This document shows positions 30,163 through 55,062 of a stretch of DNA of 64,000 nt, piece after piece. The notes below the pieces were generated by a model. The model searched no databases, had not been told where the DNA came from, and saw only the letters and a list, made by a program, of their open reading frames with translations. How positions within the stretch are numbered: the first letter of the stretch is position 1; each line of letters opens with the position of its first letter. A program made the position numbers and the translations under genes. The stretch comes from an uncultured Gammaproteobacteria bacterium (GTDB lineage Bacteria > Patescibacteriota > Microgenomatia > UBA8517), in NCBI GenBank assembly GCA_964395115.1, contig CAYMZX010000003.1, forward strand, positions 14,111-78,110, read 5' to 3'.

Positions 30163-31017
30163 ATGAAAAAGCTGTGGGGGGTTTTTCTGTTCGTCTTAGG
30201 TTTGGGATTCTTGTCGGTGGCCGGACTTTTTCTTTTGGGATATTTAAATCCAAAAGAGGCTGGGATTCTGATTGAAACGGACCCAGTCAGTCTTGTTTAT
30301 ATCAACGGCCAAGAGGTGGGTCAGACCCCCTTAGAATACAAAACCCGCCCCGGCGAAGCGACGGTCAAACTTGCCCCCCTCTCGGATAATTTTGCTTCCT
30401 TTGAGACAAAAATAACCCTAGTTCCAGGCGTTTTGACAATAATTCGTCGGGAATTGAAGGAAACCGAGGAAGACTCGGCGGGAGAAATAGTTTCCTTCGA
30501 GAAAATCGGCGGGAAGAAGGCAGAAATTGCCGTTGTATCTATTCCTAATTCAGCCGAAGTTTTCTTGGATGGCCATAGTCGCGGCTTTGCGCCGATTAAG
30601 AGTTCTACGGTCGCAGGAAGACACGAAATAAAAGTTTTCGCTACGAATTATCAACAGAGAGTTTTTGAAATAAAAACACTGGTGGGTTACAAAGTGACGG
30701 CGGTTGTCAAACTATCCCCGGCGGTTAAAGAAACAGAAAAAATACCACTTATCCAAGAAGAACAAACCCTAGTAGAGATTCTTTCTACGCCAACGGGTTT
30801 TCTGAGGGTCAGAGACAAGCCAGGATTGGCGGGAGTTGAAATTGCCCAGGTGGGGCCCGGCGAAAAATACCTCTTTTTGGGAGAGGATGAATTAACGGGT
30901 TGGTATAAGATTGAAATTGATAAAGACAGAGAAGGGTGGGTATCAAGTCAGTACGCCAAAAAGGTTCAAGGAATTTTATCTCCGACCCCAAGTCCCGCGG
31001 CTACGCCTAGCCAATAG
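30163..31017 (+). CDS. Membrane-anchored PEGA-domain / SH3b-domain surface protein
   Basis: N-terminal TM. PEGA-like repeats (VYINGQEVGQTP..., VFLDGHSRGFAP...). The C-terminal SH3b-like block is GFLRVRDKPGLAGVEIAQVGPGEKYLFLGEDELTGWYKIEI. Confidence 0.6.
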   Translation: MKKLWGVFLFVLGLGFLSVAGLFLLGYLNPKEAGILIETDPVSLVYINGQEVGQTPLEYKTRPGEATVKLAPLSDNFASFETKITLVPGVLTIIRRELKETEEDSAGEIVSFEKIGGKKAEIAVVSIPNSAEVFLDGHSRGFAPIKSSTVAGRHEIKVFATNYQQRVFEIKTLVGYKVTAVVKLSPAVKETEKIPLIQEEQTLVEILSTPTGFLRVRDKPGLAGVEIAQVGPGEKYLFLGEDELTGWYKIEIDKDREGWVSSQYAKKVQGILSPTPSPAATPSQ

Positions 31018-31957
31018 TCGCCAAACCTCCATAGAAAATCCAAATAATCATAACTAACCATAGGAAAACCGAGGACATCAAGTATATATCAGTCAAGAGG
31101 AGTTTTTCTGGGGATTCGCTCCGGCCTTCAAAAATCAGGCTTTCATATCTCATTATTCCAAATATTGTGACGGGAATGGTAAACATAAGAAGTTTATTGA
31201 TAGTAGTAGTGCGAGATAATTCGGCCAAAAAGAGCCAGACAGGCAAGGAAGCCCGAGGGGACTCAAAGAAGGTAAATAGAGACCAACTCATCCAGGCGGC
31301 ATTCCCGAACATAGTGACATAAGAATTAAGAAGCTCTCTCTGGTAATGGGCCAGGCTTTCCCGGGTTATCCCTTCTTGAGGCAGTAAATTAAGCTCGGCC
31401 CTCCTTTTACCGGCAGCCAGGAAAAGAGAGACGGAGATAACACATAAAAGAAACCAGACTGAAAGATGGGCGTCAATGACAAAGGCGCCGGCATAAACCC
31501 TTATGATAAAGCCGGTGGCGATAATCAAAATATCAATGATCGCTATCTTTTTGAGACCGAGACTATAAAAAAACTGGAGAACCAAATAAGCAATAACGGC
31601 CCAAAAAAACAAGGGATTGAGAGTTTTGGCTAAAACCAGAGAGAAGAGGGTAAAAAGAAAACTGATTAAAATTGCGACTGGGGAGGAAATTTTTCCCGAT
31701 GCCACCGCTCTGAATTTTTTGATTGGATGCAACCTATCATATTTAGCATCCATAACGTCATTAAATGTATAAGAAGCGGAGGAGGCTAAACTGAATCCAA
31801 CAAAGGCCCAAAGAACTTTACTAAACAGAATTTCATTGAAAAGGTTTCCACTAAAAATGATGGCGGCGAAAAGGAAAAGATTTTTGATCCAATGAATTGG
31901 GCGGATGATATTTATTATCGAGCTAATCATCAATATTTTGGACGATAAGTAAGCCAC
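31007..31957 (-). CDS. UbiA-family prenyltransferase, decaprenyl-phosphate phosphoribosyltransferase (DPPR synthase)-like
   Basis: NDVMDAKYDRLHPIKKFRAVASGKIS carries the NDxxDxxxD motif and the DPPR-synthase-like context, with 8-9 TM helices. Confidence 0.8.
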   Translation of the reverse strand: MAYLSSKILMISSIINIIRPIHWIKNLFLFAAIIFSGNLFNEILFSKVLWAFVGFSLASSASYTFNDVMDAKYDRLHPIKKFRAVASGKISSPVAILISFLFTLFSLVLAKTLNPLFFWAVIAYLVLQFFYSLGLKKIAIIDILIIATGFIIRVYAGAFVIDAHLSVWFLLCVISVSLFLAAGKRRAELNLLPQEGITRESLAHYQRELLNSYVTMFGNAAWMSWSLFTFFESPRASLPVWLFLAELSRTTTINKLLMFTIPVTIFGIMRYESLIFEGRSESPEKLLLTDIYLMSSVFLWLVMIIWIFYGGLATIG

Positions 31958-33000
31958 AATATTAATCCTCCCAGAAGAACGGCAACCCCGACCATTGTAT
32001 ACATCTTGGTCGAAGCATTCAAATTAAGGGCCAAAATTCCCAGAAATGCAGAGATAAACCAATAAAATATGGCCACCCGTCTTTTGCCCCAGCCAATATC
32101 CAAAAGCCGATGATGTAAATGGCCGCGGTCGCCCCAGACGGGCGATTTTCCTGATAAAATTCGTCGCACAATAGTATATCCAGTGTCAATTAAAGGAACT
32201 CCTAAGACTACCATCAAGGTTCCCACCTTAGTCGTTGAAAGAATAGCCAAGACTGCTAATAAGTATCCAGCCAAAGTCGAACCTCCATATCCGGGCATAA
32301 TTTTTTGAGGATAAAAATTCCAAGGCAGGAATCCCAAGTAGGCACCGGCGGTTATAGAAGCCAGGATAATAACCGGCCATTGAGTGATGTCGGCCGAAAA
32401 TTTTAAAGAAAGAGCGGCGATAGTAACGGCCGAAACTACCACCACTCCCGGAAGTTGACCATCAACCCCCTTTGCACCCATATTAAGCATATTCATAATA
32501 AAAACTATCCAAATCAAGGCGAAGAGATCTGAGATTATCCAAATACTTCTTTGTTGTCCCCAAAAATTAAAACTTATCTGCGGCCGGGAAAGATCAATCA
32601 GGCCGTCGAAAGGGTTTGAAATATAGGCGATGCCGATTCCGGCGACGATAGGGATAGTGGCGGCGATAAATCCGGTCCCCAGTCTTAGATAAGGATTAAG
32701 GTCGTATTTATCGTCTAATATTCCGATGAGAGAAACAAAGGTTGCCCCGGCCAAAATTCCTACGACGTGCTTGTCTATTGGTAAGAAAACCAAAGAAATA
32801 ATACCGATGGCAAGAAAAGTAGCCAGTCCACCGGCCCGAGGGACGGGGTATGTATGAATAACTTTTGGATGTTTATGGACTTTGGGGTCGTCGATAATAT
32901 TAAATTTTCGAGCGAATCTAATGGCAAGGGGGGTAGTTAGATAAGCCAAAATCCCCGCCATTATACCCGGCAAAAGTGCCAATCTGATTATTTCCATCAA
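31930..33000 (-). CDS. Glycosyltransferase family 4 polyprenyl-phosphate N-acetylhexosamine-1-phosphate transferase (MraY/WecA/WbpL family)
   Basis: GILDDKYDL, FIMNMLNMGAKGVDGQ and a polytopic topology. Confidence 0.8.
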   Translation of the reverse strand: MMEIIRLALLPGIMAGILAYLTTPLAIRFARKFNIIDDPKVHKHPKVIHTYPVPRAGGLATFLAIGIISLVFLPIDKHVVGILAGATFVSLIGILDDKYDLNPYLRLGTGFIAATIPIVAGIGIAYISNPFDGLIDLSRPQISFNFWGQQRSIWIISDLFALIWIVFIMNMLNMGAKGVDGQLPGVVVVSAVTIAALSLKFSADITQWPVIILASITAGAYLGFLPWNFYPQKIMPGYGGSTLAGYLLAVLAILSTTKVGTLMVVLGVPLIDTGYTIVRRILSGKSPVWGDRGHLHHRLLDIGWGKRRVAIFYWFISAFLGILALNLNASTKMYTMVGVAVLLGGLILWLTYRPKY

Positions 33001-33001
33001 T

Positions 33002-33343
33002 TTAAAAACTGCCCACCAAAAAGATTATTTTAAGGGTGGTAATATAGGCAAAAAAGGTTCCCGCCACGCCCCCAAAAATAATTATTTTTTTAAGGAAATC
33101 CTCCTGTATTTTTAAGGCAATTAATGAATTAATTAAGATAATCACTAACGATGCCAGGGCGGGAATCACCAGAAAAAAACTTTTTACAAGTTGGTCCTCC
33201 CCTTCGGCCAATCCATAAAAAAGGGGGACTACCGGAGGAAGAAATTTTTGACTGAGGAGAACGATTCCGGCAAGAACAGCATTTAGAATTACACAAACGA
33301 CAATAAGTCTTCGAAACGGCAGGTCGGCGAGCCCCAATTTCAT
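33002..33343 (-). CDS. Small 3-4 TM membrane protein of unknown function
   Basis: 113 aa, hydrophobic, tightly packed in the glycosylation operon. Confidence 0.5.
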   Translation of the reverse strand: MKLGLADLPFRRLIVVCVILNAVLAGIVLLSQKFLPPVVPLFYGLAEGEDQLVKSFFLVIPALASLVIILINSLIALKIQEDFLKKIIIFGGVAGTFFAYITTLKIIFLVGSF

Positions 33344-33387
33344 AAGAGACTAGCTTCAATTTTACTCGAAGGAAGAGAAAGGAGCAA

Positions 33388-34893
33388 TTAAATTGCCTTG
33401 ACGCTTCCCTTCAGCCGCCAAACTTCTGCCTCGTTAATATTGAAGATAAGCATATAAGATTTTTTTAGAAAAGACAAAAGTTGAGGAAATCCTCCAGCTT
33501 CAGGAAGGATAATGATGAATTTTGGAGGGTTATTCTCAAGAATTCTGACTTCTTTTTCTTTGGAAGAAAAATCGTTAATATGATAATCGGCGACAAATTT
33601 TCCCGGCGGAAGTCTTCTGGATAGAGCATAAACGGCAGAGGAATCGGGCCCCCAAACAAAGATTTTTTCCGAAGGATTAGTTGAGCTCGCAAGAAAACGA
33701 GCAATTTCATAATGGGTCGGAACTTGGCGGCCAAAACTGGCAAGGTACTCCTCTCGAGAGCTTTTGCCGACGGCAAATTTGATAAATCTTGAATAGTAGC
33801 CCGAAGTTGAATAATACCAAAACTTGAAATAAAAGGAAGCGAAAAAGACCAAAACAATGGGCAAGATGACCAACGATTGTTCTAGCGATTTTTCCGCGAA
33901 CAAAATCGCAAAGAGAAAAGAAAGTGGAGCGGCAATCTGAAGTAGATAATGAGGATAAGGGCGTTCGGAGAGAGTAGCGGCAAAAAGCCCGAAAAAGGTC
34001 CAAACAGTCAAAAATATGAATTTATTCGAAAGTTTCGACCTTTTTAAAAAAAGAATTGCCACTCCTACAGCCACGATACCCAATCGAATCAAAAGCGGCA
34101 GATTCCTAAGTGAGAATGGTTTGTTGATATCTTGGGGCCGCCAACTAGACAGATATCCGATATTTTGTAGGAAGGCTGCCCGAATATAATCGCCAAGATT
34201 GCCAGCCAAAAGAAACCAAGCAAGAGATATGCAAATTGGCACTAAAAAACCAGCCACCAAATAGAGTGATTTGGTGAACGTATCTTTCAAGGCTTCCTTT
34301 TTCAAGCCGGAGATGACGAGCCAGAAAACAATGATAACCAGCAAATCAAAGGCCGCTGGAATCTTAAATAGGGCGGCGATTCCGAAAAGAACACCGGCAA
34401 CAAAAATATCTTTTGAATAACCCTTTTTATCCATAAGAAGCAAGAAAGCGGCGACAATTGGGCCAATCATAAAGTTTTCAGCATTGGCAATGTTTCCTTC
34501 CAAAAGCGGAAGGGTCGTGAGAAGGGCAAAAATAACGACGGCAGTTTTTTGAACCTTAGTTTTGTTCGGGAAAAGTTTTTCAGATAGTTTCCAAAAAAGG
34601 ACTATGGTTGCCAGGCTCCAGAAAGCCAAGATTGTCTTAAACCAGAAAACGTTTCCAGCTAAAGCAGCCAGAAGATAAAGCAAAGGAGGCTTATTGTCAT
34701 AAATTCCTGAGTATAGAGGCAGTCCATGTTTTATTCCTTCTCCGACAGAGAGATAAATCATCTCGTCTCCGTAAGAAAAAGGTTCTAGAAAGGAGGGGAT
34801 TCTGAGGACTAAAACCAGGGCCAAAACGAGAATTATCCAACTAGGCAGATGAAGTTTATCTAGAAAGTTTTTCATTGAGCTCGTTCCATCCAA
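33388..34893 (-). CDS. GT-C fold glycosyltransferase (ArnT/PMT-like, GT39/GT83 type)
   Basis: N-terminal FSYGDEMIYLSVGEGIKHGLPLY carries the DE motif after TM1, and the protein is polytopic. Confidence 0.75.
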   Translation of the reverse strand: MDGTSSMKNFLDKLHLPSWIILVLALVLVLRIPSFLEPFSYGDEMIYLSVGEGIKHGLPLYSGIYDNKPPLLYLLAALAGNVFWFKTILAFWSLATIVLFWKLSEKLFPNKTKVQKTAVVIFALLTTLPLLEGNIANAENFMIGPIVAAFLLLMDKKGYSKDIFVAGVLFGIAALFKIPAAFDLLVIIVFWLVISGLKKEALKDTFTKSLYLVAGFLVPICISLAWFLLAGNLGDYIRAAFLQNIGYLSSWRPQDINKPFSLRNLPLLIRLGIVAVGVAILFLKRSKLSNKFIFLTVWTFFGLFAATLSERPYPHYLLQIAAPLSFLFAILFAEKSLEQSLVILPIVLVFFASFYFKFWYYSTSGYYSRFIKFAVGKSSREEYLASFGRQVPTHYEIARFLASSTNPSEKIFVWGPDSSAVYALSRRLPPGKFVADYHINDFSSKEKEVRILENNPPKFIIILPEAGGFPQLLSFLKKSYMLIFNINEAEVWRLKGSVKAI

Positions 34894-36137
34894 ATAATTT
34901 TAAGGGAATCAAATATCTTTTCTTCTTTCTTAGTATATCCGGGTATTTGAATCTCCTCAATAGGGCCACTGGTAATAACTCCAAGGCGGTTAATTTTCTT
35001 GGGAAGAGTTTCTATGACATCATCGGGTCCCATAAGGGCGGTTCCGACATAGAAAGGAAGTTTGTCCCTTCCTTGGGGGACGTATAAGGGCGCCGGTATC
35101 CCGTAGTATTTCGCCTCCCAAAGATGGTGGGCGGCCGAGTTCCAGTTTATTAAAAAATCATCTCCTCGTTTCACCTCCTTTACATACGAAGAAAATTCTC
35201 GAAATGGTCGTTTTGTCGGGCGAGTAAAATAAATAAAATCTACCAAAATAAAAATGGCCAGAATAATGACCAAGATAATGTTAGAAATTTTTCTTCTCTG
35301 GCTCGCTGCCAAAAGCATAGCTGGCGGAATTGTGTAAATTAGATATCTATCATAAAAAAGGGGGGTAAATTTCTGGGATATTCCCCATGACAAGAAAACT
35401 GGTAATGTAGCCCAGAGGAATAGAGGTAATGATTTCCTGAAATTTAGACGCCAATTTCGTAAAGGAAGAAGAAACAGGCTTGCATTAAGATATTTGAAAA
35501 ACAAAAGAGCCAAATCTTTAAACGTCGGTTTTCCCAGCCAAAAACCGCTTTCAACAAGTTTTGTTTGTTTATACAGGGGTATCAACCAAGGGGAATAAAG
35601 AATTCCGACGACCAGAAAAACCTTAAGCATGGTCATTGCCAATTTTCTGTTACCCCCAAACAACTCTCCTAAAAAAAGAAGGGCCTGAACCAAAAGGGCG
35701 AAGAAACAGAAATGCTGAGTATAAAGAGCCATGGTCGTAGTCAAAATATAAAAGCCCCACCTTCTTCTTAGGAAGAAATAAAACGAAGCGGTAACGGTTG
35801 CCACCAGAAGAGAATACATTCTTCCCTCAAAACCATAGGTAAACAAAAAAGGATTAAAAAAAGTAAGAAGGGCGGCAAGTATGGCGGTTTTTTTATCCCA
35901 AAAATACCCCCCTATTTTATAGGTAAAATAAACCGCCCCTAAAAGAAATAAAAAAGCCAAAATCCTAATAGAGACCTCGCTGGCGCCGAAAAGTCTAAAC
36001 CAAAGACTTTCCAGAATATTAAACAAAGGCGGATGCGGCTCATTGGTGGAAATTTTGATTATCTCGGGAATTCCCTTCAAAGAAAGAATAGCGGAGAACG
36101 CCTCGTCCCCCCAAAGGCTGGCAGTAAATTGATTCAC
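34872..36137 (-). CDS. GT-C fold glycosyltransferase (ArnT/PMT-like), paralogous to the neighbouring gene
   Basis: WGDEAFSAILS is a DE motif, with a polytopic membrane topology. Confidence 0.7.
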   Translation of the reverse strand: MNQFTASLWGDEAFSAILSLKGIPEIIKISTNEPHPPLFNILESLWFRLFGASEVSIRILAFLFLLGAVYFTYKIGGYFWDKKTAILAALLTFFNPFLFTYGFEGRMYSLLVATVTASFYFFLRRRWGFYILTTTMALYTQHFCFFALLVQALLFLGELFGGNRKLAMTMLKVFLVVGILYSPWLIPLYKQTKLVESGFWLGKPTFKDLALLFFKYLNASLFLLPLRNWRLNFRKSLPLFLWATLPVFLSWGISQKFTPLFYDRYLIYTIPPAMLLAASQRRKISNIILVIILAIFILVDFIYFTRPTKRPFREFSSYVKEVKRGDDFLINWNSAAHHLWEAKYYGIPAPLYVPQGRDKLPFYVGTALMGPDDVIETLPKKINRLGVITSGPIEEIQIPGYTKKEEKIFDSLKIIWMERAQ

Positions 36138-36144
36138 GTTTTCA

Positions 36145-37635
36145 CTATACCTTTTCGGTTACCCGATATTCAATATATTTCCCTAGCATAAGGCGGGTAT
36201 GGGCGTCGAGACCGGGGAGGGCGGTGAAAAAAAAGCCGGCGATTGGCATAAGAATAAATTCAAATGGGGCAACGAGGGCCTTCCAAAGAGGAACCTCCTT
36301 TGGCCTTTTTGGTTTATAGAAATTATTGATAATTATCATTATTACTAAGAAGCCGAGTGCTACAGTCAACACATAAGAAGAAAGTCGGGGGACGGTATAG
36401 CCGAGGGTAGTTTTGGCAAAAGCGGGGTTTAAAATTGAGGGGATAGTTAATCCTAGCGTGATAATAAACCAATTGACGGGCCACATAAAATGAGCCCAGA
36501 GAGCGTATATTAATCGCATGGTCTTGTCCCAAAAGGGGACCCCGGGCGTTAAAAAGTAATTTTTTATTATCCAGGGGTCATCCGAAACGCCCCAGGCCCA
36601 CCTTTTGTATTGTTCGTATTGATTTTTTAATGTTTTCAGTAAAGAGGTCGATTGAGGCGCATCCGCATGTAGTGGTAGATAAATGGGTTCAACTTCGACC
36701 CCTCCCCGTTTTTTGTAATAGGCCTTAAAGAAGATTCCCCAATCTTCCGGAATTTTATCTGGGTCCCAGTAATCAACCTCATCAAGGAGTTTAAAAGAAA
36801 GAGAGTAGTTTTGCTGGTTGATGAGCCGGTCTTTTCTCGACAATTGGGAAAGATTCCAGATCGAAGAGATTGTGTTGGGAACTCGCGTAATGGCCGGCAA
36901 TTCCCAGATATTGTTGTAAAACATCACTGCCGGTTGCCAGAAATATCGGTAACGATTTGGATTATCAAGGAATTTAAAAGTCAGACATGAGAAGTGTTTG
37001 GGATGATACACGTGGTCGGCATCACAAGAGGTGATAGTTAAATAATTTATATCGTACAATAGTTCGTCTATAAGTTTTTTCTTAGCCCAAATACCAGCAT
37101 AGCGTTCATTAGAAGCCTTTCCTACAACCTCGCCGGGCCCCAGCCTATGGACAGTTACAAAGAAATGGCCGAAGGTTTTACCGAATTTTTTGGTGAGAGC
37201 CAGCGCTTTCCCAAGTCTTTGTTCTTTTTCCTCCTTCTCTTCCATTGCCAGAATTACAATTAGCTGTTTTTTGGGAAAATCCTGCCTGGCTAATGAGGTA
37301 AGTGTTCTTTCCAGGATATAAAGAGGTTCTTTATAGGTGGGGACAATAATTATGTGGTGGACCTTTTTCCAGTCAGAAAATGGTTTGAGATCCCCAAGCC
37401 AATCATAACTCAAAGAAGCCTGAATTTTTAAATGGGAGATAAAGGCGGCGAGAGCTATTTGAAGAGACTGGTAAAACCAATAGATATTAAAAGCAAGAAC
37501 GAAATAAGCAACTACATTAGGAATTATAAAAATTCCCCAATAAGGAAAAAGAATAGCGTTCCAAGAAAAAAGACCGGGGAGAATTTCTAAGAAACGGTGG
37601 ATGAGTTTATCATGCTTTACGAAAAGGTTCCTCAT
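36145..37635 (-). CDS. Membrane GT2 glycosyltransferase of the processive (cellulose/chitin-synthase-like) type
   Basis: IIIVPTYKEP, DAD and QYKRWAWG (the QxxRW motif), with N- and C-terminal TM helices. Confidence 0.8.
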   Translation of the reverse strand: MRNLFVKHDKLIHRFLEILPGLFSWNAILFPYWGIFIIPNVVAYFVLAFNIYWFYQSLQIALAAFISHLKIQASLSYDWLGDLKPFSDWKKVHHIIIVPTYKEPLYILERTLTSLARQDFPKKQLIVILAMEEKEEKEQRLGKALALTKKFGKTFGHFFVTVHRLGPGEVVGKASNERYAGIWAKKKLIDELLYDINYLTITSCDADHVYHPKHFSCLTFKFLDNPNRYRYFWQPAVMFYNNIWELPAITRVPNTISSIWNLSQLSRKDRLINQQNYSLSFKLLDEVDYWDPDKIPEDWGIFFKAYYKKRGGVEVEPIYLPLHADAPQSTSLLKTLKNQYEQYKRWAWGVSDDPWIIKNYFLTPGVPFWDKTMRLIYALWAHFMWPVNWFIITLGLTIPSILNPAFAKTTLGYTVPRLSSYVLTVALGFLVIMIIINNFYKPKRPKEVPLWKALVAPFEFILMPIAGFFFTALPGLDAHTRLMLGKYIEYRVTEKV

Positions 37636-37638
37636 AGA

Positions 37639-39054
37639 TTATCTCAGGCGAGGAAATAAAGGCTCCCCCAGTTTGATTCCAGGTCCACTAAACAGCTTTT
37701 CAATTTTTTCAGAAGTTTCCGGGAGAAAGGGTCTAAGTTGGTTGGCTAAACTTAAAATTTTTTTTACAAGATATCCCAAAACAGCATTCAGTTTTTTTTG
37801 GTTTTTTATCTTCCATGGCTCATTCTTGTCAATATATCGGTTAGCGAGAATTACTTGGCTATGAACATTATTAAGGACTCCATATAGGTCAAGATGTTCA
37901 ATATCTTCACAATAACGTGCGGGTATTTTTTTTGATTGAGATATCTTAATGTTCAAACCTTCACAAAGTTTAGCCACCCTGGAGACTAAATTGCCCAAAG
38001 CGTCGGCAAGATCGGCGTTGTATTTTGCATCGAATCTTTTTAATGAAATATCGCCGTCGTCCCCGAAGGGGTAGGCCGAAATTAACAAGTATCTTGCTCC
38101 ATCGACCCCATATCTATCAACTAATTGTTTGGGGGAAATGATATTTCCTAAGGACTTTGACATCTTTTGGCCATCGATAGTGAAGAATCCATGTGCAAAA
38201 ATTTTCTTCGGCAAATCTACCCCCGCGGCGATTAAAAGCGCTTGCCAAATTACTGCGTGGAACCAAAGAATGTCCTTACCGATTAAATGCAAATCTGCTG
38301 GCCAGAATTTTGTCTTTCCTTCCAAAAATTGGGTAGCCGAATAGTAATTTATTAAAGCATCAACCCAGACGTAAATTGTTTGAGACTTATCCCAGGGAAC
38401 AGGAATTCCCCAAGAAACGCCCCCTCTGGAGATAGAAATATCTTCGACCCTGCTTTTTAATCTGCCGATAACTTCATTTTTCCTCTCTTTGGGCAAGATT
38501 TCATATTCTTCCTCCTCAATTTTTCCTAAAACCTTTTTTGAAAGTTCAGAAAGCCTCAAGAAATAATTGTCCTCTTTCTGTTTTACCGGCTCCTTATTAG
38601 GATGAAGAAGGCAGCGCCCCCCAACAAGATCGCTTTCTGTCAAAAACTTCTCACAACCGATACAGTAAAGACCTTCATACGTTCCTTTATAGATATACCC
38701 TTTGTCGTAAATTTTTTGAAGAAGAGAAGTAACTATTTTTTCGTGTTTAGGATCTGTTGTCCTGATAAAGTAATCATAACTTATATTAAGGAGCCGCCAG
38801 GCATCTTTAAAACGTGAAGTAACTGAATCGGAAAATTCTTTGGGAGAAACCCCTTTCTCTTTGGCCGCTTGGCTAACTTTTTGGCCATGCTCATCTGTTC
38901 CGGTCAGGAAAAAGACGTTTTCTCTACCCAGTTTTTCCCGGTAATATCGGGCCAAAATGTCGGCGGCCAAAGTGGTATAGGCGTGTCCAATGTGCGGAAC
39001 GTCATTGACATAATAAATGGGTGTCGTAACAAAAAATTTCTTGTCCATAGGCAT
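37639..39054 (-). CDS. metG: Methionyl-tRNA synthetase (short form)
   Basis: PIYYVNDVPHIGHAYTTLAADILARY (HIGH motif) and KMSKSLGN. Confidence 0.92.
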   Translation of the reverse strand: MPMDKKFFVTTPIYYVNDVPHIGHAYTTLAADILARYYREKLGRENVFFLTGTDEHGQKVSQAAKEKGVSPKEFSDSVTSRFKDAWRLLNISYDYFIRTTDPKHEKIVTSLLQKIYDKGYIYKGTYEGLYCIGCEKFLTESDLVGGRCLLHPNKEPVKQKEDNYFLRLSELSKKVLGKIEEEEYEILPKERKNEVIGRLKSRVEDISISRGGVSWGIPVPWDKSQTIYVWVDALINYYSATQFLEGKTKFWPADLHLIGKDILWFHAVIWQALLIAAGVDLPKKIFAHGFFTIDGQKMSKSLGNIISPKQLVDRYGVDGARYLLISAYPFGDDGDISLKRFDAKYNADLADALGNLVSRVAKLCEGLNIKISQSKKIPARYCEDIEHLDLYGVLNNVHSQVILANRYIDKNEPWKIKNQKKLNAVLGYLVKKILSLANQLRPFLPETSEKIEKLFSGPGIKLGEPLFPRLR

Positions 39055-39080: not shown

Positions 39081-39434
39081 CTACTTCCTGACAAATTTTC
39101 GTATCTTTTCAGCCCAAACAGCGGCCCATTCCTCGGCCTCAATCTTTTGAAGAGCGAGTTTTAGCCCCGCCTTTTTCGTGAGGCCTTGGACAGAGGCGAT
39201 AGTGGCACTCGAAACTTTTAGATTTTGTTTTATGTTAGCATAGCTTCTCCCTTTTTTTAACCAATAAACGATCGCGAGTCTTTTGGCAAATGTTTCCAAT
39301 TCGTTTTGATTGAAAAAATCCTTCAGGAAAGTTTCCGCTTCCCCGAGATCTTTTAAGTCAGCAAGAGTTTGGGCAAAGGTTTTGACGATCTGGTTCTTTA
39401 AAGACGGATTTAGTTTTTGTTCGGAAATTCGCAT
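39081..39434 (-). CDS. TrpR-like/YerC-YecD family small DNA-binding protein
   Basis: 117 aa. ELETFAKRLAIVYWLKKGRSYANIKQNLKVSSATIASV has an HTH-like pattern. Confidence 0.5.
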   Translation of the reverse strand: MRISEQKLNPSLKNQIVKTFAQTLADLKDLGEAETFLKDFFNQNELETFAKRLAIVYWLKKGRSYANIKQNLKVSSATIASVQGLTKKAGLKLALQKIEAEEWAAVWAEKIRKFVRK

Positions 39435-39506
39435 TTGTTTGTTCGAATAAATTAGCAGAAGTATAACAATTAGGAAAACCTTGTCAACTCTCCGGAAATA
39501 ACGATC

Positions 39507-40917: not shown

Positions 40918-43821
40918 GTGATAAAAGATAACAGCCAATTGAAACTTAACAGAGGACAGTGGGCAGCGATCAAATACGGCAAAGGACCTCTCTTGATTAT
41001 TGCCGGAGCCGGGACTGGAAAGACAACGGTCATTACCGAGCGGATTAAATACCTAATCCTATCCAAGTTGGCAAAACCGGATGAAATCTTGGCTCTGACC
41101 TTCACCGAGAAAGCAGCCCGGGAAATGGAGGAAAGAGTCGACGTGGCCATGCCTTATGGCTATACCCAGATGTGGATTTCTACCTTCCATTCCTTTTGCG
41201 ATCGGATACTTCGGAGAGAGGCGTTCCATATCGGACTTGATCCGAAATACAAGTTAGCTTCTGAAGCAGAAACTGTACAGTTTGTTCGAAACAACTTGTT
41301 TGCCTTTGACTTAAATTATTTTAGGCCCTTGGGCAATCCCACGAAATTTATTACCGGAATGCTTCAGCATTTTTCTAGACTTCAAGACGAAGACGTTAGT
41401 CCCGACGAATATCTGTCTTATGCCAAGAATCTTAAAAGAGTCGAAAAAGAAGAAAAAGAAAAAACACTAGAACTGGCTCGGGCCTACAAAAAGTATGACG
41501 AATTGAAAACAAAAGAGGGAATTATGGATTTCGGAGATTTAATAGTTAAGACCCTTCTGCTTTTTCGAAAAAGACCCAACGTTTTAAAAACATACCAAGA
41601 ACAATTCAAATATATTCTTGTTGATGAATTCCAAGATACAAATTACGCCCAAAACGAGTTAGCGATTTTACTTTCGAAGAAAACGAAAAATTTAACTGTT
41701 TGTGGAGATGATGACCAATCTATTTATCGATTCAGAGGGGCGGCCGTTTCTAACATCCTCCAATTTAGAAAAAACTTTGCCAGAGCCAAGGTCGTCGTTT
41801 TAACAAAGAACTATCGATCTACTCAGGAAATTTTGGATAGAGCCTATGAACTTATCCAACACAATAATCCGGATAGGCTTGAGGCGATGGAAAAGATTAA
41901 TAAACACCTTGCTTCGCAAAGAGGGATTAAAGGAGAGGAGATAATTCTTATACACGCCGATAGGGTTGAGAACGAAGCGGACGAGGTGGCACAAAAAATA
42001 GAGGAACTGAAGAAGCAAGAAGGATATGATTGGAATGATTTTGCCATTTTGGTCCGGGCAAATAATCACGCTGAACCCTTCAGCCGGGCTCTTGCCCGCA
42101 GGGGAATTCCTTATCAGTTTTTAGGCCCAGGAAGGCTATTTAAACAACCCGAAATCATCGACCTGATCTCTTATTTGAGGATTCTTTATAACATTGAAGA
42201 TTCGGTGGCTCTTTATCGACTTTTATCGCTTGAATATTTCGGAATCCCCGCTCGCGATCTGGCCGCCATTGGTAGCTATGCCAAGCGCTTAAACAAAACG
42301 CTTTTTGAGGCCTGCGAAAAAATACAAGATATTTTTGTAGAGCCAAAAACCAGAGAGAAAATCAAAAAGATTTTAGAAATTATTGAAAAACACCTGAAAC
42401 TTACCAGAAAAGAAACGGCTGGACAACTTCTCTATTATTTCCTTCAGGATACAGGACTTTTACAGAAACTTCTTTCCCCAGAAAGCGGGGAAGCAGAAAA
42501 GCGCGCCGCTAATATTTCTAAGTTTTTTGATAAATTAAAAACCTACGAAGCAGATCACGAGGATGCCACTGTTCCGGCGGTGGTAGACTGGCTGGAATTA
42601 TCTTCCGAATTAGGGGAGTCTCCCTTGGCGGCCGATTCTGATTGGACCCGGGTTAATGCAGTCAATATTCTAACAGTCCACTCCTCAAAAGGTTTGGAAT
42701 TCCCGGTTGTGTTTTTGGTAAATTTGGTCGCCCAAAGATTTCCAACGGTTGAGCGAAGGGAACAAATTCCGATTCCCGAGGCGATGATAAAGGAGATTTT
42801 GCCGGTTGGGGATTATCATCTCGAGGAGGAAAGGAGACTTTTTTATGTGGGAATAACCAGGGCGATGGATAGGGTTATCTTTAGCGCCGCCGATTATTAT
42901 GGTGAAGGAAAAAGAGAAAAACGTCTTTCCCCTTTTATTTTCGAAGCCCTTGGGGAAAAAGCTGTTTCTTCGGAATTGACGACGACAAGCCATAAACAGC
43001 TAACATTTCTTGACTTCGCAACTTCCAGAGAAAAACAAGAGCCCTCCTTTAAGAGACTGCCATTTCATATCGACTATCTTTCTTATTCCCAAATTGAAAC
43101 CTTTAGGACTTGTCCCCTTCATTACAAACTGAAATATATTTTTAAGGTTCCCACCCCACCCTCGGCCGCCCAAAGTTTTGGAACGACGATTCACGCCGTT
43201 CTTAGGAACTTTTATCTGGCTGTAAAATCCGGAGAAAAACCAACAGAAAAGCTTCTTTACCGATTATTAGAAGAGAATTGGACAAGCGAAGGATTTTCCT
43301 CGAAAGTTCATGAGAAAAAATTCTTTGAAAAAGGGAAACTTTATCTGGCTGGTTTCCTGAAGCAAGAATTCAACCCCCGAAATTTACCAGTATTAATGGA
43401 GGAACCTTTTAACATTTTCCTCGATGATAAAAAAGAAAAAGGATTGAGAATTGGAGGAAAAATAGACAGAGTCGATTGTTTCCCCGATGGAACAATCGAG
43501 ATAATTGATTACAAAACCGGGGCGACGATACCCAGCCAAAAAGAAGTGGATCAAGATCTTCAACTTTCCTTTTATGCACTGGCAGCAACCAATATTCCTT
43601 ATGAACCCTTCGCTAAAAAACCCGAGCAAGCTAGGCTTTCTTTATATTTTCTGGATCAACAAGAGAAATTGACGACTACCAGGACGGCCAAGCAGCTGGA
43701 GGAGGCGGTAAAGGAAATTTTTAAAATTCGCAAAGAAATAGAAAAGTCAGATTTTAAATGTTCCCAGAATATTATTTGCGAGAAATGTGAATACTCGCTT
43801 CTTTGTCGAGCCAGTTTATAG
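40918..43821 (+). CDS. UvrD-family helicase fused to a C-terminal PD-(D/E)xK nuclease with a Cas4/AddB-type 4-Cys (Fe-S) cluster
   Basis: Walker A IIAGAGTGKTTVI. The helicase motifs run through ~650 aa. C-terminal cysteines: CPLHYK ... C-x5-C-x2-C-x5-C (KCSQNIICEKCEYSLLC). Confidence 0.8.
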   Translation: MIKDNSQLKLNRGQWAAIKYGKGPLLIIAGAGTGKTTVITERIKYLILSKLAKPDEILALTFTEKAAREMEERVDVAMPYGYTQMWISTFHSFCDRILRREAFHIGLDPKYKLASEAETVQFVRNNLFAFDLNYFRPLGNPTKFITGMLQHFSRLQDEDVSPDEYLSYAKNLKRVEKEEKEKTLELARAYKKYDELKTKEGIMDFGDLIVKTLLLFRKRPNVLKTYQEQFKYILVDEFQDTNYAQNELAILLSKKTKNLTVCGDDDQSIYRFRGAAVSNILQFRKNFARAKVVVLTKNYRSTQEILDRAYELIQHNNPDRLEAMEKINKHLASQRGIKGEEIILIHADRVENEADEVAQKIEELKKQEGYDWNDFAILVRANNHAEPFSRALARRGIPYQFLGPGRLFKQPEIIDLISYLRILYNIEDSVALYRLLSLEYFGIPARDLAAIGSYAKRLNKTLFEACEKIQDIFVEPKTREKIKKILEIIEKHLKLTRKETAGQLLYYFLQDTGLLQKLLSPESGEAEKRAANISKFFDKLKTYEADHEDATVPAVVDWLELSSELGESPLAADSDWTRVNAVNILTVHSSKGLEFPVVFLVNLVAQRFPTVERREQIPIPEAMIKEILPVGDYHLEEERRLFYVGITRAMDRVIFSAADYYGEGKREKRLSPFIFEALGEKAVSSELTTTSHKQLTFLDFATSREKQEPSFKRLPFHIDYLSYSQIETFRTCPLHYKLKYIFKVPTPPSAAQSFGTTIHAVLRNFYLAVKSGEKPTEKLLYRLLEENWTSEGFSSKVHEKKFFEKGKLYLAGFLKQEFNPRNLPVLMEEPFNIFLDDKKEKGLRIGGKIDRVDCFPDGTIEIIDYKTGATIPSQKEVDQDLQLSFYALAATNIPYEPFAKKPEQARLSLYFLDQQEKLTTTRTAKQLEEAVKEIFKIRKEIEKSDFKCSQNIICEKCEYSLLCRASL

Positions 43822-44670
43822 TTTTCGAAAAGGCAAAAGGTTTTTAATAAAAGTCCCGGGATATTCGACCTCATAGCCGCAAAAACTCTTCTTAAAATGG
43901 GTAAAACCCAACCAAGATTTATTAGGAAAGCGCTCGTCGTAAATCCCTTCAAAGTCAAACACCCTGGCGCCCATTTTTTTTGCCCAAAGAAGCCCCTCCC
44001 AAACGATTTTGTATTGAGCCAAGTTTTGCCTCCCCCCTTTTGAGGTGAAAGACTGCCAGTAATAAGCAACCGAATCGGCCAGTAAAAATATGGCGCCAGA
44101 CGACATTTCTTTGGTTGTCAGAAAAAAAGATTTCTTTTTGAAAGACTTTTTAAGTCGTATCAGGTGGTCCAGACTGGGGACGTATCTTTTTAGGCCAACA
44201 GCCTTTTTCCAAGCATTCCTAAAATCTTTTATTTCTTTCTCGATTTCTTTCTCGCAAGTTTCTAACTTGTTGGTTTTTCTAATTGCCAGCCGGGTTTCTT
44301 TCTTCAGTTTCCTAAAAATTTTTCTTTTTGACCGAGTCAAATCTATCTGCAAAGTTTTGGTGGGGAGAAAAGGGTTTTTGCTTGACTTAAAACCGACAGA
44401 GCTCAAGAATCGAGCATCCAGTTGGGTTTTCGGCTCGATAATTATCTGGAGGGCACGGTACTTTCTGGCTAACTCTCTGATTTTTTGAATTCTTATCTCT
44501 TCCGGTCTTTGTATTTTTATAATCGACCCGACAAGAAAAAGCTTTTTTATAAGCGGAGCTCGCAAAGCCAAAGGCTTTATGAAGTAATTTATTCCGGCGA
44601 ATCTCTCTACTTGCCAACCAATCTTTGATAAATAATTTGCGTAATCGATTGTCTGACGAATATCATTCAT
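43816..44670 (-). CDS. FemAB-family (peptidoglycan interpeptide aminoacyltransferase-like) protein
   Basis: C-terminal YYWQSFTSKGGRQNLAQYKIVWEGLLWAKKMGARVFDFEGI matches the FemAB C-terminal block. Confidence 0.6.
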   Translation of the reverse strand: MNDIRQTIDYANYLSKIGWQVERFAGINYFIKPLALRAPLIKKLFLVGSIIKIQRPEEIRIQKIRELARKYRALQIIIEPKTQLDARFLSSVGFKSSKNPFLPTKTLQIDLTRSKRKIFRKLKKETRLAIRKTNKLETCEKEIEKEIKDFRNAWKKAVGLKRYVPSLDHLIRLKKSFKKKSFFLTTKEMSSGAIFLLADSVAYYWQSFTSKGGRQNLAQYKIVWEGLLWAKKMGARVFDFEGIYDERFPNKSWLGFTHFKKSFCGYEVEYPGTFIKNLLPFRKL

Positions 44671-44671
44671 T

Positions 44672-54078: not shown

Positions 54079-54398
54079 GGCGTCGGGGTTGCCGATTCGG
54101 TGGCTACAGGTGTTGGAGTGGTTGTTGGCGACGGTCTAGGGGTTAGAAAAATAAAGGGACTGCTTGTAGGAACAGAAAAGTTACCAATCTCTTCTTCGGA
54201 AAAGAAAAGTCTACCCTCGATGCTATCTAACGACTCGGCATCCAATACTGGATTGAGTGGCTCAATGATGTCGGGCGGGACATTGGGCGATGGTTCATTT
54301 GTAAAAACTCGGTAGACGGTAAATATAGTCCAAAAGACAACCGTTATCATTGTCAAAAAAGCGATTGTAACGAGACTTGGTGTTTTTGAATTTTTCAT
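54075..54398 (-). CDS. Small membrane protein with a Pro/Thr-rich C-terminus (PilP-position protein?)
   Basis: 107 aa, N-terminal TM, positioned immediately after pilO. Confidence 0.45.
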   Translation of the reverse strand: MKNSKTPSLVTIAFLTMITVVFWTIFTVYRVFTNEPSPNVPPDIIEPLNPVLDAESLDSIEGRLFFSEEEIGNFSVPTSSPFIFLTPRPSPTTTPTPVATESATPTP

Positions 54399-55057: not shown

Positions 55058-55062
55058 TTTGG

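Follow-up and report, generated by a model that had tools for sequence, protein, structure and literature searches.

Three-component systems for the extracytoplasmic addition of pentofuranoses are exemplified by those of Citrobacter youngae O1/O2, which consist of ORF15, ORF14 and ORF12 and may also include ORF13 (Kelly et al. 2024, PMC11127046). Systems pairing a PPPRS with a GT-C enzyme provide precedent for the addition of Ribf, Xylf or Araf, and in Citrobacter the SDR epimerase ORF13 switches Ribf to Xylf (PMC11127046). In the D-arabinofuranosylation of group IV pilins by Pseudomonas aeruginosa, a PPPRS is combined with homologs of DprE1/2 and the GT-C enzyme TfpW (PMC11127046). The decaprenyl-phospho-arabinose pathway of mycobacteria and corynebacteria comprises Rv3806c, Rv3807c, DprE1/DprE2, the Emb/Aft GT-C enzymes, WecA and Lcp1. 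Synthase-dependent, WecA-primed O-antigen assembly is represented by WbbE/WbbF of Salmonella O:54, and, to our knowledge, all characterised members of the GT-C fold use polyprenyl-phosphate-linked sugar donors and act outside the membrane. Here we describe a gene cluster on a metagenome contig of Woesebacteria (Patescibacteria/CPR), analysed within a 64-kb stretch of DNA termed the window, and propose as its most likely product a cell-surface polymer of sugars with a ribose-type decoration.

The initial annotation of this DNA placed six packed minus-strand genes behind metG after a 4-bp gap. The packing is borne out by the open reading frames, all seven of which lie at the coordinates given below, and by public gene calls for the source contig (JGI 3300022548 Ga0212092_1000194, 74.9 kb), which match them save for a few start codons; the gap, however, is 3 nt. 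From metG to the UbiA gene the successive intergenic distances are 3, 7, -4, 44, 4 and -1 nt, the UbiA gene starting at codon 10 of a longer open reading frame with an ATG that overlaps the GT4 stop codon by 1 nt. A convergent gene encoding a PEGA/SH3 protein overlaps the 3' end of the UbiA gene by 11 nt. The features are as follows:

39460..39487, minus strand: sigma-70-like promoter match, TTGACA-16-TATACT with extended TG (11/12 matches)
39081..39434, minus strand: TrpR/YerC-like small DNA-binding protein (Pfam Trp_repressor, 49 bits)
37639..39048, minus strand: metG, methionine--tRNA ligase, 469 aa, a short form that lacks the C-terminal tRNA-binding domain (TIGR00398, 451 bits, above cut-off)
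36145..37635, minus strand: GT2, membrane-embedded family-2 glycosyltransferase, 496 aa (PF13632, 30 bits)
34872..36137, minus strand: GT-C1, PMT_2-type GT-C glycosyltransferase, 421 aa (PF13231, 37 bits, above cut-off)
33388..34875, minus strand: GT-C2, glycosyltransferase of predicted GT-C fold, 495 aa (assigned by structure)
33002..33343, minus strand: small 3-TM membrane protein, 113 aa (no Pfam family)
31930..32997, minus strand: GT4, atypical MraY/WecA-superfamily member, 355 aa (PF00953, 83 bits)
31007..31930, minus strand: putative UbiA-family polyprenyl-phosphate 5-phosphoribosyltransferase, 307 aa (PF01040 and DPPR-synthase NCBIfam models)
30163..31017, plus strand: membrane-anchored protein with two PEGA domains and SH3_3, 284 aa (PEGA 57 bits, SH3_3 34 bits)

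The family assignment of metG is certain, and its abutment with the glycan genes, which is kept in related loci with a median gap of 8 nt, is best read as operon compaction. A TrpR/YerC-like gene lies upstream of metG in 42 of 80 related loci, and the trpR-like gene, metG and the glycan genes probably form one transcription unit. The promoter match upstream of the TrpR-like gene is the strongest between 30 and 40 kb, but overall the scan shows no enrichment over shuffled sequences; it is a weak indication of where the unit likely starts.

The distribution of the cluster, whose comparison the initial annotation had proposed, was followed across 80 species-representative Woesebacteria genomes, in 77-78 of which GT-C2, the small protein, GT4, UbiA and the convergent PEGA/SH3 gene retain their order; an arrangement so consistently retained is not due to chance. 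Median identities are 52% for GT-C2, 41% for the small protein, 66% for GT4, 64% for UbiA and 43% for the PEGA/SH3 protein, with GT2 about 70% identical across Woesebacteria and metG, despite being a housekeeping gene, just 43%. GT-C2 is a core member (77/80 loci) and GT-C1 an accessory one (37/80). Between GT2 and GT-C2 lies a variable slot, which in 30/80 loci holds an accessory SDR resembling UDP-glucuronate decarboxylase, a nucleotide-sugar enzyme, at least as closely as a lipid-sugar epimerase.

The UbiA-family protein had been placed nearest to decaprenyl-phosphate phosphoribosyltransferase, and the evidence upholds that placement. DPPR-synthase NCBIfam models score 154-199 bits, among them NF008977 (199 bits, cut-off 234) and NF008978 (186 bits, cut-off 207), both just under cut-off, and the sole PDB sequence match is Rv3806c (8j8j, 2e-37). 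Models of quinone, heme and chlorophyll prenyltransferases reach at most 52 bits, and a quinone/heme prenyltransferase, an assignment that would have overturned the original proposal, was rejected. Among 13 substrate-binding residues of Rv3806c, 11 are identical here and invariant (R22, K28, Y70, N73, D77, K87, R90, Q135, Y138, K143 and K191), including the phosphoribose-specific K28, Y70 and Q135. On these grounds the protein is an Rv3806c-type polyprenyl-phosphate phosphoribosyltransferase; with the complete PRPP- and polyprenyl-phosphate-binding site of that enzyme, it should, at the cytoplasmic face, produce polyprenyl-phospho-(5-phospho)ribofuranose.

GT2 resembles the cellulose/hyaluronan-synthase type in its catalytic motifs for processive membrane synthases, in keeping with its original description as a processive QxxRW enzyme: D205xD207 (DAD), E297-D298-W299 (PEDWG) and Q342xxR345W346 (QYKRW) are invariant in 52 homologs. 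The best Foldseek matches of its model are HAS and BcsA, although at a pLDDT of only 64 the model is poor beyond the GT-A core; the predicted role is that of a backbone polymerase. Both proposed GT-C enzymes were recovered, GT-C1 by its PMT_2 HMM match and GT-C2, which had no match in the HMM search, by structure. GT-C1 begins right at the WGDE catalytic loop without the usual first transmembrane helix, and N-termini start at xNQxLWGDE in 36/37 orthologs, the exception (L081) being cut by a contig edge. In its model, GT-C2 adopts a GT-C fold; TM1 and a YGDE loop are present, the TM helices number about 11, and the C-terminus forms an extracytoplasmic alpha/beta domain. Both are genuine GT-C enzymes and appear not to be merely ArnT-type modifiers of lipid A; Patescibacteria are conventionally regarded as monoderm, LPS-free and devoid of lipid A.

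GT4 belongs to the MraY/WecA superfamily, as first annotated, but it is not a standard WecA or MraY. It scores 87 bits with the WecA model and 52 bits with the MraY equivalog model (cut-off 192), both far under the cut-offs, and it falls in a clade of the superfamily that lacks two canonical aspartates throughout. In alignments to three MraY structures, GT4 keeps the DD and HLHH motifs while these two residues, the equivalents of BsMraY D174 and of the catalytic AaMraY D265/BsMraY D231, both essential in MraY, are replaced (K176, Y237); across 78 orthologs, position 176 is K in 75 and S in 3, position 237 is Y in 54 and F in 24, and D occurs at neither. GT4 may therefore be unconventional as a priming enzyme, or inactive. 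The adjoining small protein has a conserved loop, LPPxVPLFYGxPxGxxQL, and its gene lies a median of 3 nt from that of GT4 (≤10 nt in 70/78 loci). A homologous domain is fused N-terminally to GT4 in 21/150 representative relatives and in 80 metagenome loci, and this fusion points to a GT4 partner; a flippase role is not obvious. The two proteins would form one functional unit, with the small protein as partner or subunit.

The gene for the PEGA/SH3 protein, whose C-terminal tail is rich in Ser, Thr and Pro, is present in 77/80 loci, with about a dozen orthologs bearing Pro/Thr/Ser-rich tails (S+T+P ≥33%), and it also lies near the cluster in distant relatives; the protein is a candidate wall-associated acceptor or organiser. 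Genes for wall attachment elsewhere in the window encode an LCP ligase, 9 kb from the cluster, a PMT, MurJ, FemAB and Wzy_C. Neither a 5'-phosphatase (HAD-PRP or PAP2) nor a flippase of the MATE, SMR or GtrA families was found in the cluster, the window or the conserved neighbours.

A lipid-linked pentose or hexose donor used by GT-C enzymes outside the membrane, yielding an envelope glycopolymer or glycosylated protein, was the pathway first proposed, and, with a pentose as the sugar and with due hedging, it is still the best reading. We give roughly an even chance to its specific form, a conserved system of envelope-glycoconjugate assembly in Woesebacteria in which a glycan is decorated with ribofuranose through the UbiA-derived donor and the GT-C enzymes. 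UbiA would make the phosphoribosyl lipid, GT4 and the small protein would prime a lipid-linked acceptor, and the GT2 synthase would extend and export a beta-glycan backbone. An enzyme whose gene lies elsewhere would dephosphorylate the phosphoribosyl lipid, which would then be flipped, allowing the GT-C enzymes to decorate the extracellular glycan with ribofuranose; where the variable slot holds an SDR (30/80 genomes), which parallels Citrobacter ORF13, a different pentose might, speculatively, replace ribofuranose. The LCP ligase might transfer the finished glycan to peptidoglycan or, alternatively, a Wzy_C/O-antigen-ligase-type enzyme might attach it to surface proteins, with the PEGA/SH3 protein as candidate acceptor or organiser.

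The initial annotation had given this pathway an arabinan flavour, for which there is no support: neither the window nor the conserved neighbours of the 80 loci include a DprE1/DprE2-type epimerase, and for that reason the predicted donor is polyprenyl-P-ribofuranose. An actinobacterial-type pathway, in which epimerisation would turn the UbiA product into polyprenyl-P-arabinofuranose and the GT-C enzymes would act as arabinofuranosyltransferases to build an arabinan, is thus very improbable, even though UbiA is homologous to Rv3806c and the region shares with arabinogalactan synthesis a WecA-like enzyme, GT-C enzymes and an LCP ligase. Equally far-fetched is the notion that GT4 is the organism's MraY and the cluster serves peptidoglycan precursor synthesis. 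MraY structures are the best PDB sequence matches of GT4, which is the sole PF00953 gene in the window, but the WecA model outscores the MraY model, the two aspartates are missing in 78/78 orthologs, and the neighbours are glycan enzymes rather than mur or fts genes.

The genes might instead belong to separate pathways (a GT2 exopolysaccharide synthase, GT-C enzymes O-glycosylating proteins from hexose donors, a WecA-like primer enzyme and a phosphoribosyl-lipid synthase) held together solely by genome compaction and inherited synteny. The syntenic metG, trpR-like and groES/EL genes, which lack an obvious functional link, fit such an arrangement, as do the variable slot, the optional GT-C1, and a large PMT-type GT-C and an LCP ligase elsewhere in the window. 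Yet start and stop codons overlap or are coupled, the small protein can be fused to GT4, every member is a membrane glycan-assembly enzyme, and in a distant lineage (L087) GT-C2-like, GT2, small::GT4, UbiA, Wzy_C and PEGA/SH3 genes again occur together at 34-51% identity despite rearranged order and strand, which suggests that selection, not inertia, keeps them together; we regard separate pathways as unlikely, if worth keeping in view. The wider clade with fused small::GT4 bears on this question and on another. GT2 lies directly upstream in 53/62 of its loci and UbiA ≤3 kb downstream in 41/48, so that the conserved core beyond Woesebacteria is GT2, small::GT4 and UbiA. Profiles of GT-C1 and GT-C2 derived from Woesebacteria match only 3 of 80 fused-clade loci (L091, L093 and L096), no other recurrent GT-C-sized family was found in these 80, and a Wzy_C protein is common in place of the GT-C enzymes. 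That most of these loci lack GT-C enzymes favours separate pathways; it also means that the link from UbiA to GT-C enzymes is drawn from Woesebacteria-type loci only and may not reflect the ancestral function of UbiA. The phosphoribosyl lipid could then be a primer or anchor rather than a GT-C donor, GT4 and the 3-TM protein using the 5-phosphate of polyprenyl-P-ribose-5-P, and not bare polyprenyl phosphate, as nucleophile for sugar-1-phosphate transfer, GT2 elongating, and the Woesebacteria GT-C enzymes being later add-ons fed by other donors. This deep three-gene association, the translational coupling of GT4 to UbiA (a 1-nt overlap here, median distance -25 nt), the dispensability of a phosphatase and the loss of two acidic residues from GT4, with a Lys in Woesebacteria compatible with a more anionic acceptor, all accord with a primer. 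Against it, the fused clade has S or N in place of that Lys, and GT-C2 is a core gene of Woesebacteria that is again found with UbiA in L087, L091 and L096. The proposal is purely inferential, we know of no precedent in the MraY/WecA superfamily for transfer onto polyprenyl-P-ribose-5-P, and we consider it doubtful.

On the favoured reading of a ribofuranose-decorated glycan, similarities to the described systems are partial. ArnT-dependent modification of lipid A with L-Ara4N differs: genes for ArnA, B, C or D are absent, and the cluster has just one lipid-sugar synthase, the predicted PRPP-dependent UbiA enzyme. The pairing of an MraY/WecA-family enzyme with a multi-TM, HAS-like processive GT2 that would both polymerise and export recalls Salmonella O:54, although GT4 here lacks two canonical Asp and has an extra 3-TM module, and a phosphoribosyl-lipid synthase belongs to the conserved core. 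With the mycobacterial pathway the locus shares an Rv3806c homolog, identical at 11/13 substrate-contacting residues, and a WecA-like enzyme, GT-C enzymes and an LCP ligase in the same genome region; however, DprE1/DprE2 and a PAP2 phosphatase were not detected here, the GT-C enzymes are small (421-495 aa), without carbohydrate-binding modules and structurally no nearer to Aft/Emb than to mannosyltransferases, and a membrane synthase-type GT2 stands where mycobacteria have soluble GlfT-type polymerases.

In P. aeruginosa a PPPRS feeds a GT-C enzyme that modifies a surface protein, and here a surface protein with a Ser/Thr/Pro tail is a conserved neighbour. Patescibacteria depend on type IV pili, and the window contains a PilN gene, but the Woesebacteria locus has neither epimerase genes nor an adjacent pilin gene. 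Compared with the Citrobacter systems, the Woesebacteria synthase is without a fused HAD phosphoribose-phosphatase domain, the cluster is without a MATE, SMR or GtrA flippase, the locus also includes a synthase-type GT2 and an atypical member of the MraY/WecA family, and the host is a Patescibacteria lineage. As in Citrobacter, however, a UbiA-family polyprenyl-phosphoribose synthase with N-D-x-x-D-x-x-x-D and R/K-x-x-E loops adjoins a GT-C of the ArnT-like structural class, an SDR in some loci could change the pentose, and the pathway is predicted to act extracytoplasmically on a glycan that is already assembled. The cluster would represent a variant, not previously recorded, of the known lipid-linked pentofuranose glycosylation systems.

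A run of six closely spaced minus-strand genes follows metG, much as the initial annotation described it; the run appears alike in the ORF listing and in public gene calls, with only trivial corrections to its layout. The public calls come from the 74.9-kb JGI contig Ga0212092_1000194, whose UbiA protein is 100% identical to the one analyzed here. Except for the convergent gene, the features below are taken from the ORF listing and these public calls.

39081-39434, minus strand: trpR-like gene
37639-39048, minus strand: metG
36145-37635, minus strand: GT2 glycosyltransferase
34872-36137, minus strand: GT-C1
33388-34875, minus strand: GT-C2
33002-33343, minus strand: small membrane protein
31930-32997, minus strand: GT4 family protein
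31007-31930, minus strand: UbiA family protein
30163-31017, plus strand: convergent PEGA and SH3 domain gene, sharing 11 nt with the 3' end of UbiA

Intergenic distances downstream of metG are 3, 7, -4, 44, 4 and -1 nt, and UbiA starts at an ATG that overlaps the GT4 stop codon, not at the start of the longest ORF. A promoter and terminator scan, which overall was not enriched over shuffled sequences, placed the best promoter-like match of the region upstream of the trpR-like gene and yielded no convincing intergenic terminator inside the gene run. Among the named relatives of UbiA, the nearest (67-80% identical) are encoded in MAGs assigned to Candidatus Woesebacteria, Microgenomates and Patescibacteria, and the window itself belongs to a metagenome contig from a Woesebacteria-type member of the Patescibacteria (CPR).

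The UbiA protein had been proposed to lie closest to decaprenyl-phosphate phosphoribosyltransferase, and this assignment is upheld by model scores, by its match to Rv3806c and by active-site residues. UbiA matches PF01040 (85 bits) and, among more specific profiles, the NCBIfam DPPR-synthase models NF008977 (199 bits), NF008978 (186 bits) and NF008976 (154 bits) as well as the HAD-fused 'PRK08238' type model (150 bits), against at most 52 bits for all quinone, heme, chlorophyll and archaeal-lipid prenyltransferase models. Its two best scores fall just under the NCBI equivalog cut-offs of 234 and 207 bits, respectively, which marks it as a divergent family member; some of its orthologs are already named decaprenyl-phosphate phosphoribosyltransferase by NCBI. 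The sole PDB sequence match at E<=1 is Mycobacterium tuberculosis Rv3806c (2e-37). We compared 13 residues that contact PRPP, Mg2+ and decaprenyl phosphate in the cryo-EM study of that enzyme (PMC10994848), and 11 of these (R22, K28, Y70, N73, D77, K87, R90, Q135, Y138, K143 and K191) are identical in UbiA and invariant in 15 homologs. Of the other two, Y157 gives way to F, a substitution also seen in some mycobacteria, and K208 is variable. Because the phosphoribose-binding residues of Rv3806c are absent from true UbiA prenyltransferases (PMC10994848), the residue comparison is a specific one, and it places UbiA with the phosphoribosyltransferases. A quinone or heme prenyltransferase is ruled out by the model scores, the sole PDB match and these residues. 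By residue-level membership UbiA is thus a polyprenyl-phosphate phosphoribosyltransferase (PPPRS), predicted to convert PRPP and polyprenyl phosphate to polyprenyl-phosphate-ribose-5-phosphate.

The description of GT4 as an MraY/WecA-like enzyme holds for the superfamily, to which PF00953 (83 bits), a DD motif and a His-rich cytoplasmic loop assign it, but not for two canonical Asp residues, which are replaced by K176 and Y237. Scores against the WecA (87 bits) and MraY (52 bits) models are both far under the cut-offs. Across 78 orthologs, D95 and D96 of the DD motif and H293, H295 and H296 of the HxHH motif are invariant, position 176 is K in 75 and S in 3, and position 237 is Y in 54 and F in 24; Asp occurs at neither. 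Alignment of the family with three MraY structures equates position 176 with the first Asp of N-x-x-N-x-x-D-G-x-D-G, i.e. BsMraY D174, and position 237 with the Asp of G-D-x-G-S, i.e. BsMraY D231 or AaMraY D265. The latter is a catalytic residue of the Mg2+ site, and BsMraY D174 is likewise listed as essential (PMC5039524). Searched exhaustively with HMMER, a set of 1.84 billion representative sequences yielded 455 GT4 relatives at E<1e-30. Among the best 150 of these, the variant motifs, S-(K/S/N)-G-x-D-G-Q together with P-G-Y-G-G or W-G-F-G-A-T, are common to roughly the nearest 60, and farther relatives have L-D-G-L-D-G-L and G-(D/E)-x-G-S, the canonical forms.

The small protein encoded next to GT4, 113 aa in length, comprises three transmembrane (TM) helices, and one of its loops, LPPxVPLFYGxPxGxxQL, is conserved; a scan of 23 orthologs at E<=10 returned no Pfam family, only scattered noise. 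Of the best 150 GT4 relatives, 21 are proteins of 470-525 aa that begin with ~130 residues homologous to the small protein, including a counterpart of its loop (LPxxIPLWYTxPWGxxQL), and the small protein and GT4 therefore form one functional unit. A flippase role for the small protein was rejected on these fusions and on the lack of any GtrA, SMR or MATE signal. As judged from sequence, this GT4 clade, with its altered active site and obligatory 3-TM partner, could represent new enzymology.

The assignment of GT2 to the QxxRW type is confirmed by residues that are invariant in 52 homologs, all of almost exactly 496 aa: E103, D205/D207 (DxD), E297-D298 (E-D-W) and Q342/R345/W346 (Q-x-x-R-W). 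The protein matches PF13632 (30 bits), comprises a GT-A domain with TM helices at either end, and carries the motif set of processive membrane GT2 synthases of the cellulose, hyaluronan and chitin synthase kind. Its AlphaFold model is poor outside residues 80-235 (pLDDT 64), owing to a shallow alignment of sequences 70-84% identical, and the top Foldseek matches of this weak model, to HAS, BcsA and the minimal cellulose-synthase-like PcManGT (E ~1e-8, TM-scores 0.3-0.4), are only indicative.

The two predicted GT-C enzymes were likewise recovered, GT-C1 by a PMT_2 match above threshold and GT-C2 by its predicted fold. GT-C2 has no HMM match and no PDB sequence match, and PDB sequence and profile searches with GT-C1, GT-C2 and GT2 gave nothing useful. 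The AlphaFold model of GT-C2, built from 56 homologs, is confident (pLDDT 89, pTM 0.88), and its Foldseek matches include STT3, ArnT, DPY19, PglB, AftD and PMT. As in PMT_2/ArnT-like enzymes, the GT-C fold comes with an acidic motif (DE) located in the first loop outside the cytoplasm. By its model, GT-C2 falls in the ArnT-like GT-C class. Structural match figures of 14.5 for AftA, 12.6 for AftD, 11.4 for AftB and 7.9 for EmbA, vs 18-21 for mannosyltransferases and ArnT, bring it no nearer to the arabinofuranosyltransferases, so that the sugar cannot be read from the fold. Among the 37 orthologs of GT-C1, 36 start 5-12 residues ahead of the catalytic W-G-D-E loop, the 37th (locus L081) being clipped by a contig edge; GT-C1 accordingly is without TM1, the helix that usually precedes the DE loop and that GT-C2 has. 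Judging by this sequence, the GT-C1 N-terminus would have to cross the membrane without a signal sequence. The two enzymes show only a remote collinear relation by hhalign (probability 12%) and are thus not recent paralogs.

To follow the locus across related genomes, we scanned one genome per GTDB species and recovered 80 loci, all in Woesebacteria/Microgenomates-type MAGs. Of these, 77-78 carry, in this order, GT-C2, the small protein, GT4, UbiA and the convergent PEGA/SH3 gene, and the upstream trpR-like gene, metG and GT2 are found in most loci long enough to show them. The coupling is kept throughout, with a median small-to-GT4 gap of 3 nt, an overlap between GT4 and UbiA, and a median of 8 nt from metG to GT2. 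Median identities are 70% for GT2, 66% for GT4, 64% for UbiA, 52% for GT-C2, 41% for the small protein and 43% for metG, which indicates that the glycan enzymes are more constrained than the tRNA ligase. GT-C1 is present in only 37/80 loci; what separates GT2 from GT-C2 is a slot of variable content, occupied by GT-C1, by assorted other genes or by both. Inside or next to it, 30/80 loci, though not the window, encode an oppositely oriented extended SDR of the NAD epimerase/dehydratase family (312-329 aa, with TGxxGxxG and YxxxK motifs; e.g. L009:2283-3272, minus strand). The SDR resembles UDP-glucuronate decarboxylase/UDP-xylose synthase, and its scores against the NCBIfam dTDP-glucose dehydratase, GalE and UDP-xylose synthase models are all under cut-off.

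Beyond this group, distant relatives encode the fused small protein and GT4. One such locus, L087, carries metG, a gene resembling GT-C2 on the opposite strand (34% identity), GT2 (51%), the fusion and UbiA (41%), followed by a CYTH gene and, beyond it, Wzy_C, PEGA/SH3 and groEL; in L088 the fusion is accompanied by GT2 and UbiA, in L089 by GT2 only. Across 80 metagenome loci with the fusion, GT2 abuts it upstream in 53/62, and in 41/48 the 3 kb downstream include a UbiA of the PPPRS type. The Woesebacteria-derived GT-C1 and GT-C2 profiles matched only 3/80 of these loci, and ORF clustering revealed no other recurrent GT-C-sized family among them. These contexts identify GT2, the fused small protein and GT4, and UbiA as the deepest conserved core, with the GT-Cs a Woesebacteria-type feature. 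A Wzy_C (O-antigen-ligase family) protein is encoded in 31/80 and a PEGA/SH3 protein in 34/80 of the fusion loci. Two further conserved small membrane proteins without known family occur in the fused-GT4 lineages, between or after the fusion and UbiA: one of ~159 aa in 33 loci (e.g. L107:4496-4975, minus strand) and one of ~187 aa in 42 (e.g. L100:12877-13443, minus strand).

Elsewhere the window is rich in envelope functions, and the following genes were located in addition to the operon.

1154-6861, plus strand: TraC-like, DUF87/AAA_10 and TraG P-loop genes and a 736-aa protein without family
12223-13464, plus strand: Wzy_C (O-antigen ligase family) membrane protein, downstream of rnpA-yidD-yidC-jag
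14019-16679: DUF4012 protein, 884 aa
47575-48696, plus strand: LCP (LytR-CpsA-Psr) glycopolymer-peptidoglycan ligase, a 373-aa ORF
within 47575-51092, plus strand: large PMT/GT39-type GT-C, an 806-aa ORF with PMT, PMT_2 and PMT_4TMC domains
60890-61963, minus strand: nucleotide-sugar (UDP-glucose-type) dehydrogenase, covering only profile positions 71-296 of 413

The LCP ligase ORF overlaps the start of the 806-aa GT-C by ~25 nt, and the pair makes up another GT-C system, complete with a wall ligase and distinct from the operon, which is 9 kb away. In the more distant relatives, L087 and the 31 metagenome loci, Wzy_C is one of the genes within the GT2-GT4-UbiA cluster. The Wzy_C protein may be the ligase or O-oligosaccharyltransferase of the operon's pathway. 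The convergent PEGA/SH3 protein, with two PEGA domains and an SH3_3 domain, ends in SPTPSPAATPSQ, and about a dozen orthologs (e.g. in L007, L028, L059 and L084) have long C-terminal tails rich in Pro, Thr and Ser (S+T+P at least 33%). Such tails are typical O-glycosylation sites or wall-spanning linkers. Also encoded are two members of the FemAB family, which serves the interpeptide bridge of peptidoglycan, MurJ and a run of pilus genes that includes PilN (43816-45688, minus; 55992-57719, plus; 54395-55626, minus strand). The first ~65 residues of the dehydrogenase match a LexA-type DNA-binding domain, an odd fusion or truncation. The TraC-like run adjoins dnaN-dnaA (7447-10100, minus strand), near a cumulative GC skew minimum at 8-10 kb, and could be a conjugation/type-IV-secretion-like module or mobile element beside the replication origin.

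We propose a pathway in which GT4 with its small partner and the GT2 synthase would make and export a lipid-primed backbone, UbiA would provide polyprenyl-phosphate-ribofuranose, GT-C2, with or without GT-C1, would decorate the glycan outside the cell, and the LCP ligase or alternatively the Wzy_C enzyme would attach the product; taken as a whole, we give this scheme an even chance of being correct. The identities, folds and active-site residues of the individual proteins are shown by the analysis; we infer the sequence of the steps, the acceptor, and the phosphatase and flippase that the locus is missing. UbiA, at 307 aa, has no extra domain, and neither the window nor the conserved neighbors include a HAD or PAP2 gene for the 5'-phosphoribose phosphatase, which may be encoded elsewhere. 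The 64-kb window likewise has no MATE or SMR/GtrA flippase, and no phosphatase, flippase or DprE1/2-like gene is found among the recurrent neighbors of the 80 Woesebacteria loci. A gene for a CYTH protein (triphosphate-tunnel phosphohydrolase) lies directly after UbiA in L087 (10440-11096, plus strand) and in the slot of Woesebacteria locus L070 (4845-5423, minus strand); its product is a candidate for the missing phosphohydrolase step.

Other readings of the locus give its enzymes different roles. Besides being a donor for the GT-Cs, the phosphoribosyl lipid could itself serve the altered GT4 as a primer or anchor. The cellulose-synthase-like GT2, the re-wired GT4, which lacks the Mg2+-site Asp and one Asp of the uridine pocket, with its fused or separate 3-TM partner, and PPPRS would then constitute a widespread, Patescibacteria-specific glycan machine, its product a wall polymer linked through ribose phosphate or else a glycan carried by the PEGA/SH3 surface protein. 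Such a role would fit the deeper GT2-GT4-UbiA linkage, the absence of a phosphatase and GT4's loss of acidic residues, yet it is without precedent, and we judge it unlikely; if true, it would constitute a new reaction for the MraY/WecA superfamily, with a product central to the episymbiont envelope. That the co-located genes belong to separate pathways seems to us rather doubtful. An arabinan pathway is rejected as very improbable, as DprE1/E2 were not found in the 64-kb window or among the recurrent families of 160 related loci, and there is equally little chance that GT4 is MraY, an identity against which its HMM scores and the missing catalytic Asp speak. ArnT-type lipid-A modification is dismissed because the Arn genes are absent and Patescibacteria are not known to have lipid A.

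Much of bacterial diversity falls within the Patescibacteria (CPR), whose members live attached to other microbes. In a recent study of Saccharibacteria their glycosylation is still called 'unexplored' (PMC11623550), and the surface chemistry of the CPR is thus essentially uncharted. The locus is among the most conserved non-housekeeping blocks in Woesebacteria, and with GT2, GT4 and UbiA at 64-70% identity vs 43% for metG, it puts forward specific genes as candidates for the making of a core glycoconjugate of the cell surface. The locus provides a highly conserved, testable handle on CPR surface chemistry in which one enzyme may have new chemistry, and the key activities are open to heterologous expression with existing assays. 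Our literature search found no description of the locus, the GT4 variant or the fusion in Patescibacteria.

Among known systems, the closest comparison is the three-component pentofuranose system, in which a PPPRS makes undecaprenyl-phosphate-ribose-5-phosphate from PRPP, a phosphatase takes off the 5-phosphate, a flippase exports the lipid-sugar and a GT-C adds alpha-Ribf to the finished glycan, with the sugar diversified to Xylf or Araf by an SDR epimerase (ORF13) or DprE1/2 (PMC11127046). The Woesebacteria locus shares the first and last of these components, PPPRS and GT-C (UbiA and GT-C2 lie within 2.5 kb of each other in 77/80 loci), and 30/80 Woesebacteria genomes have a possible counterpart of the SDR epimerase, which by analogy could vary the pentose like Citrobacter ORF13, or else produce UDP-xylose. 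However, two defining features, a recognizable phosphatase and flippase, are missing at the locus, which in turn has a synthase-type GT2, an atypical MraY/WecA-superfamily enzyme with a 3-TM partner and a PEGA/SH3 neighbor as extras. The actinobacterial DPA/arabinan pathway differs in its DprE1/DprE2 epimerase pair, which converts polyprenyl-phosphate-ribose to polyprenyl-phosphate-arabinose and has no counterpart in the window or among the recurrent families of the 160 related loci. Judged by these comparisons, the locus appears to work like known lipid-pentofuranose pathways and is not categorically new; it extends the PRPP-dependent route to the CPR, beyond Actinobacteria and the O-antigen and pilin systems of Gram-negative bacteria.
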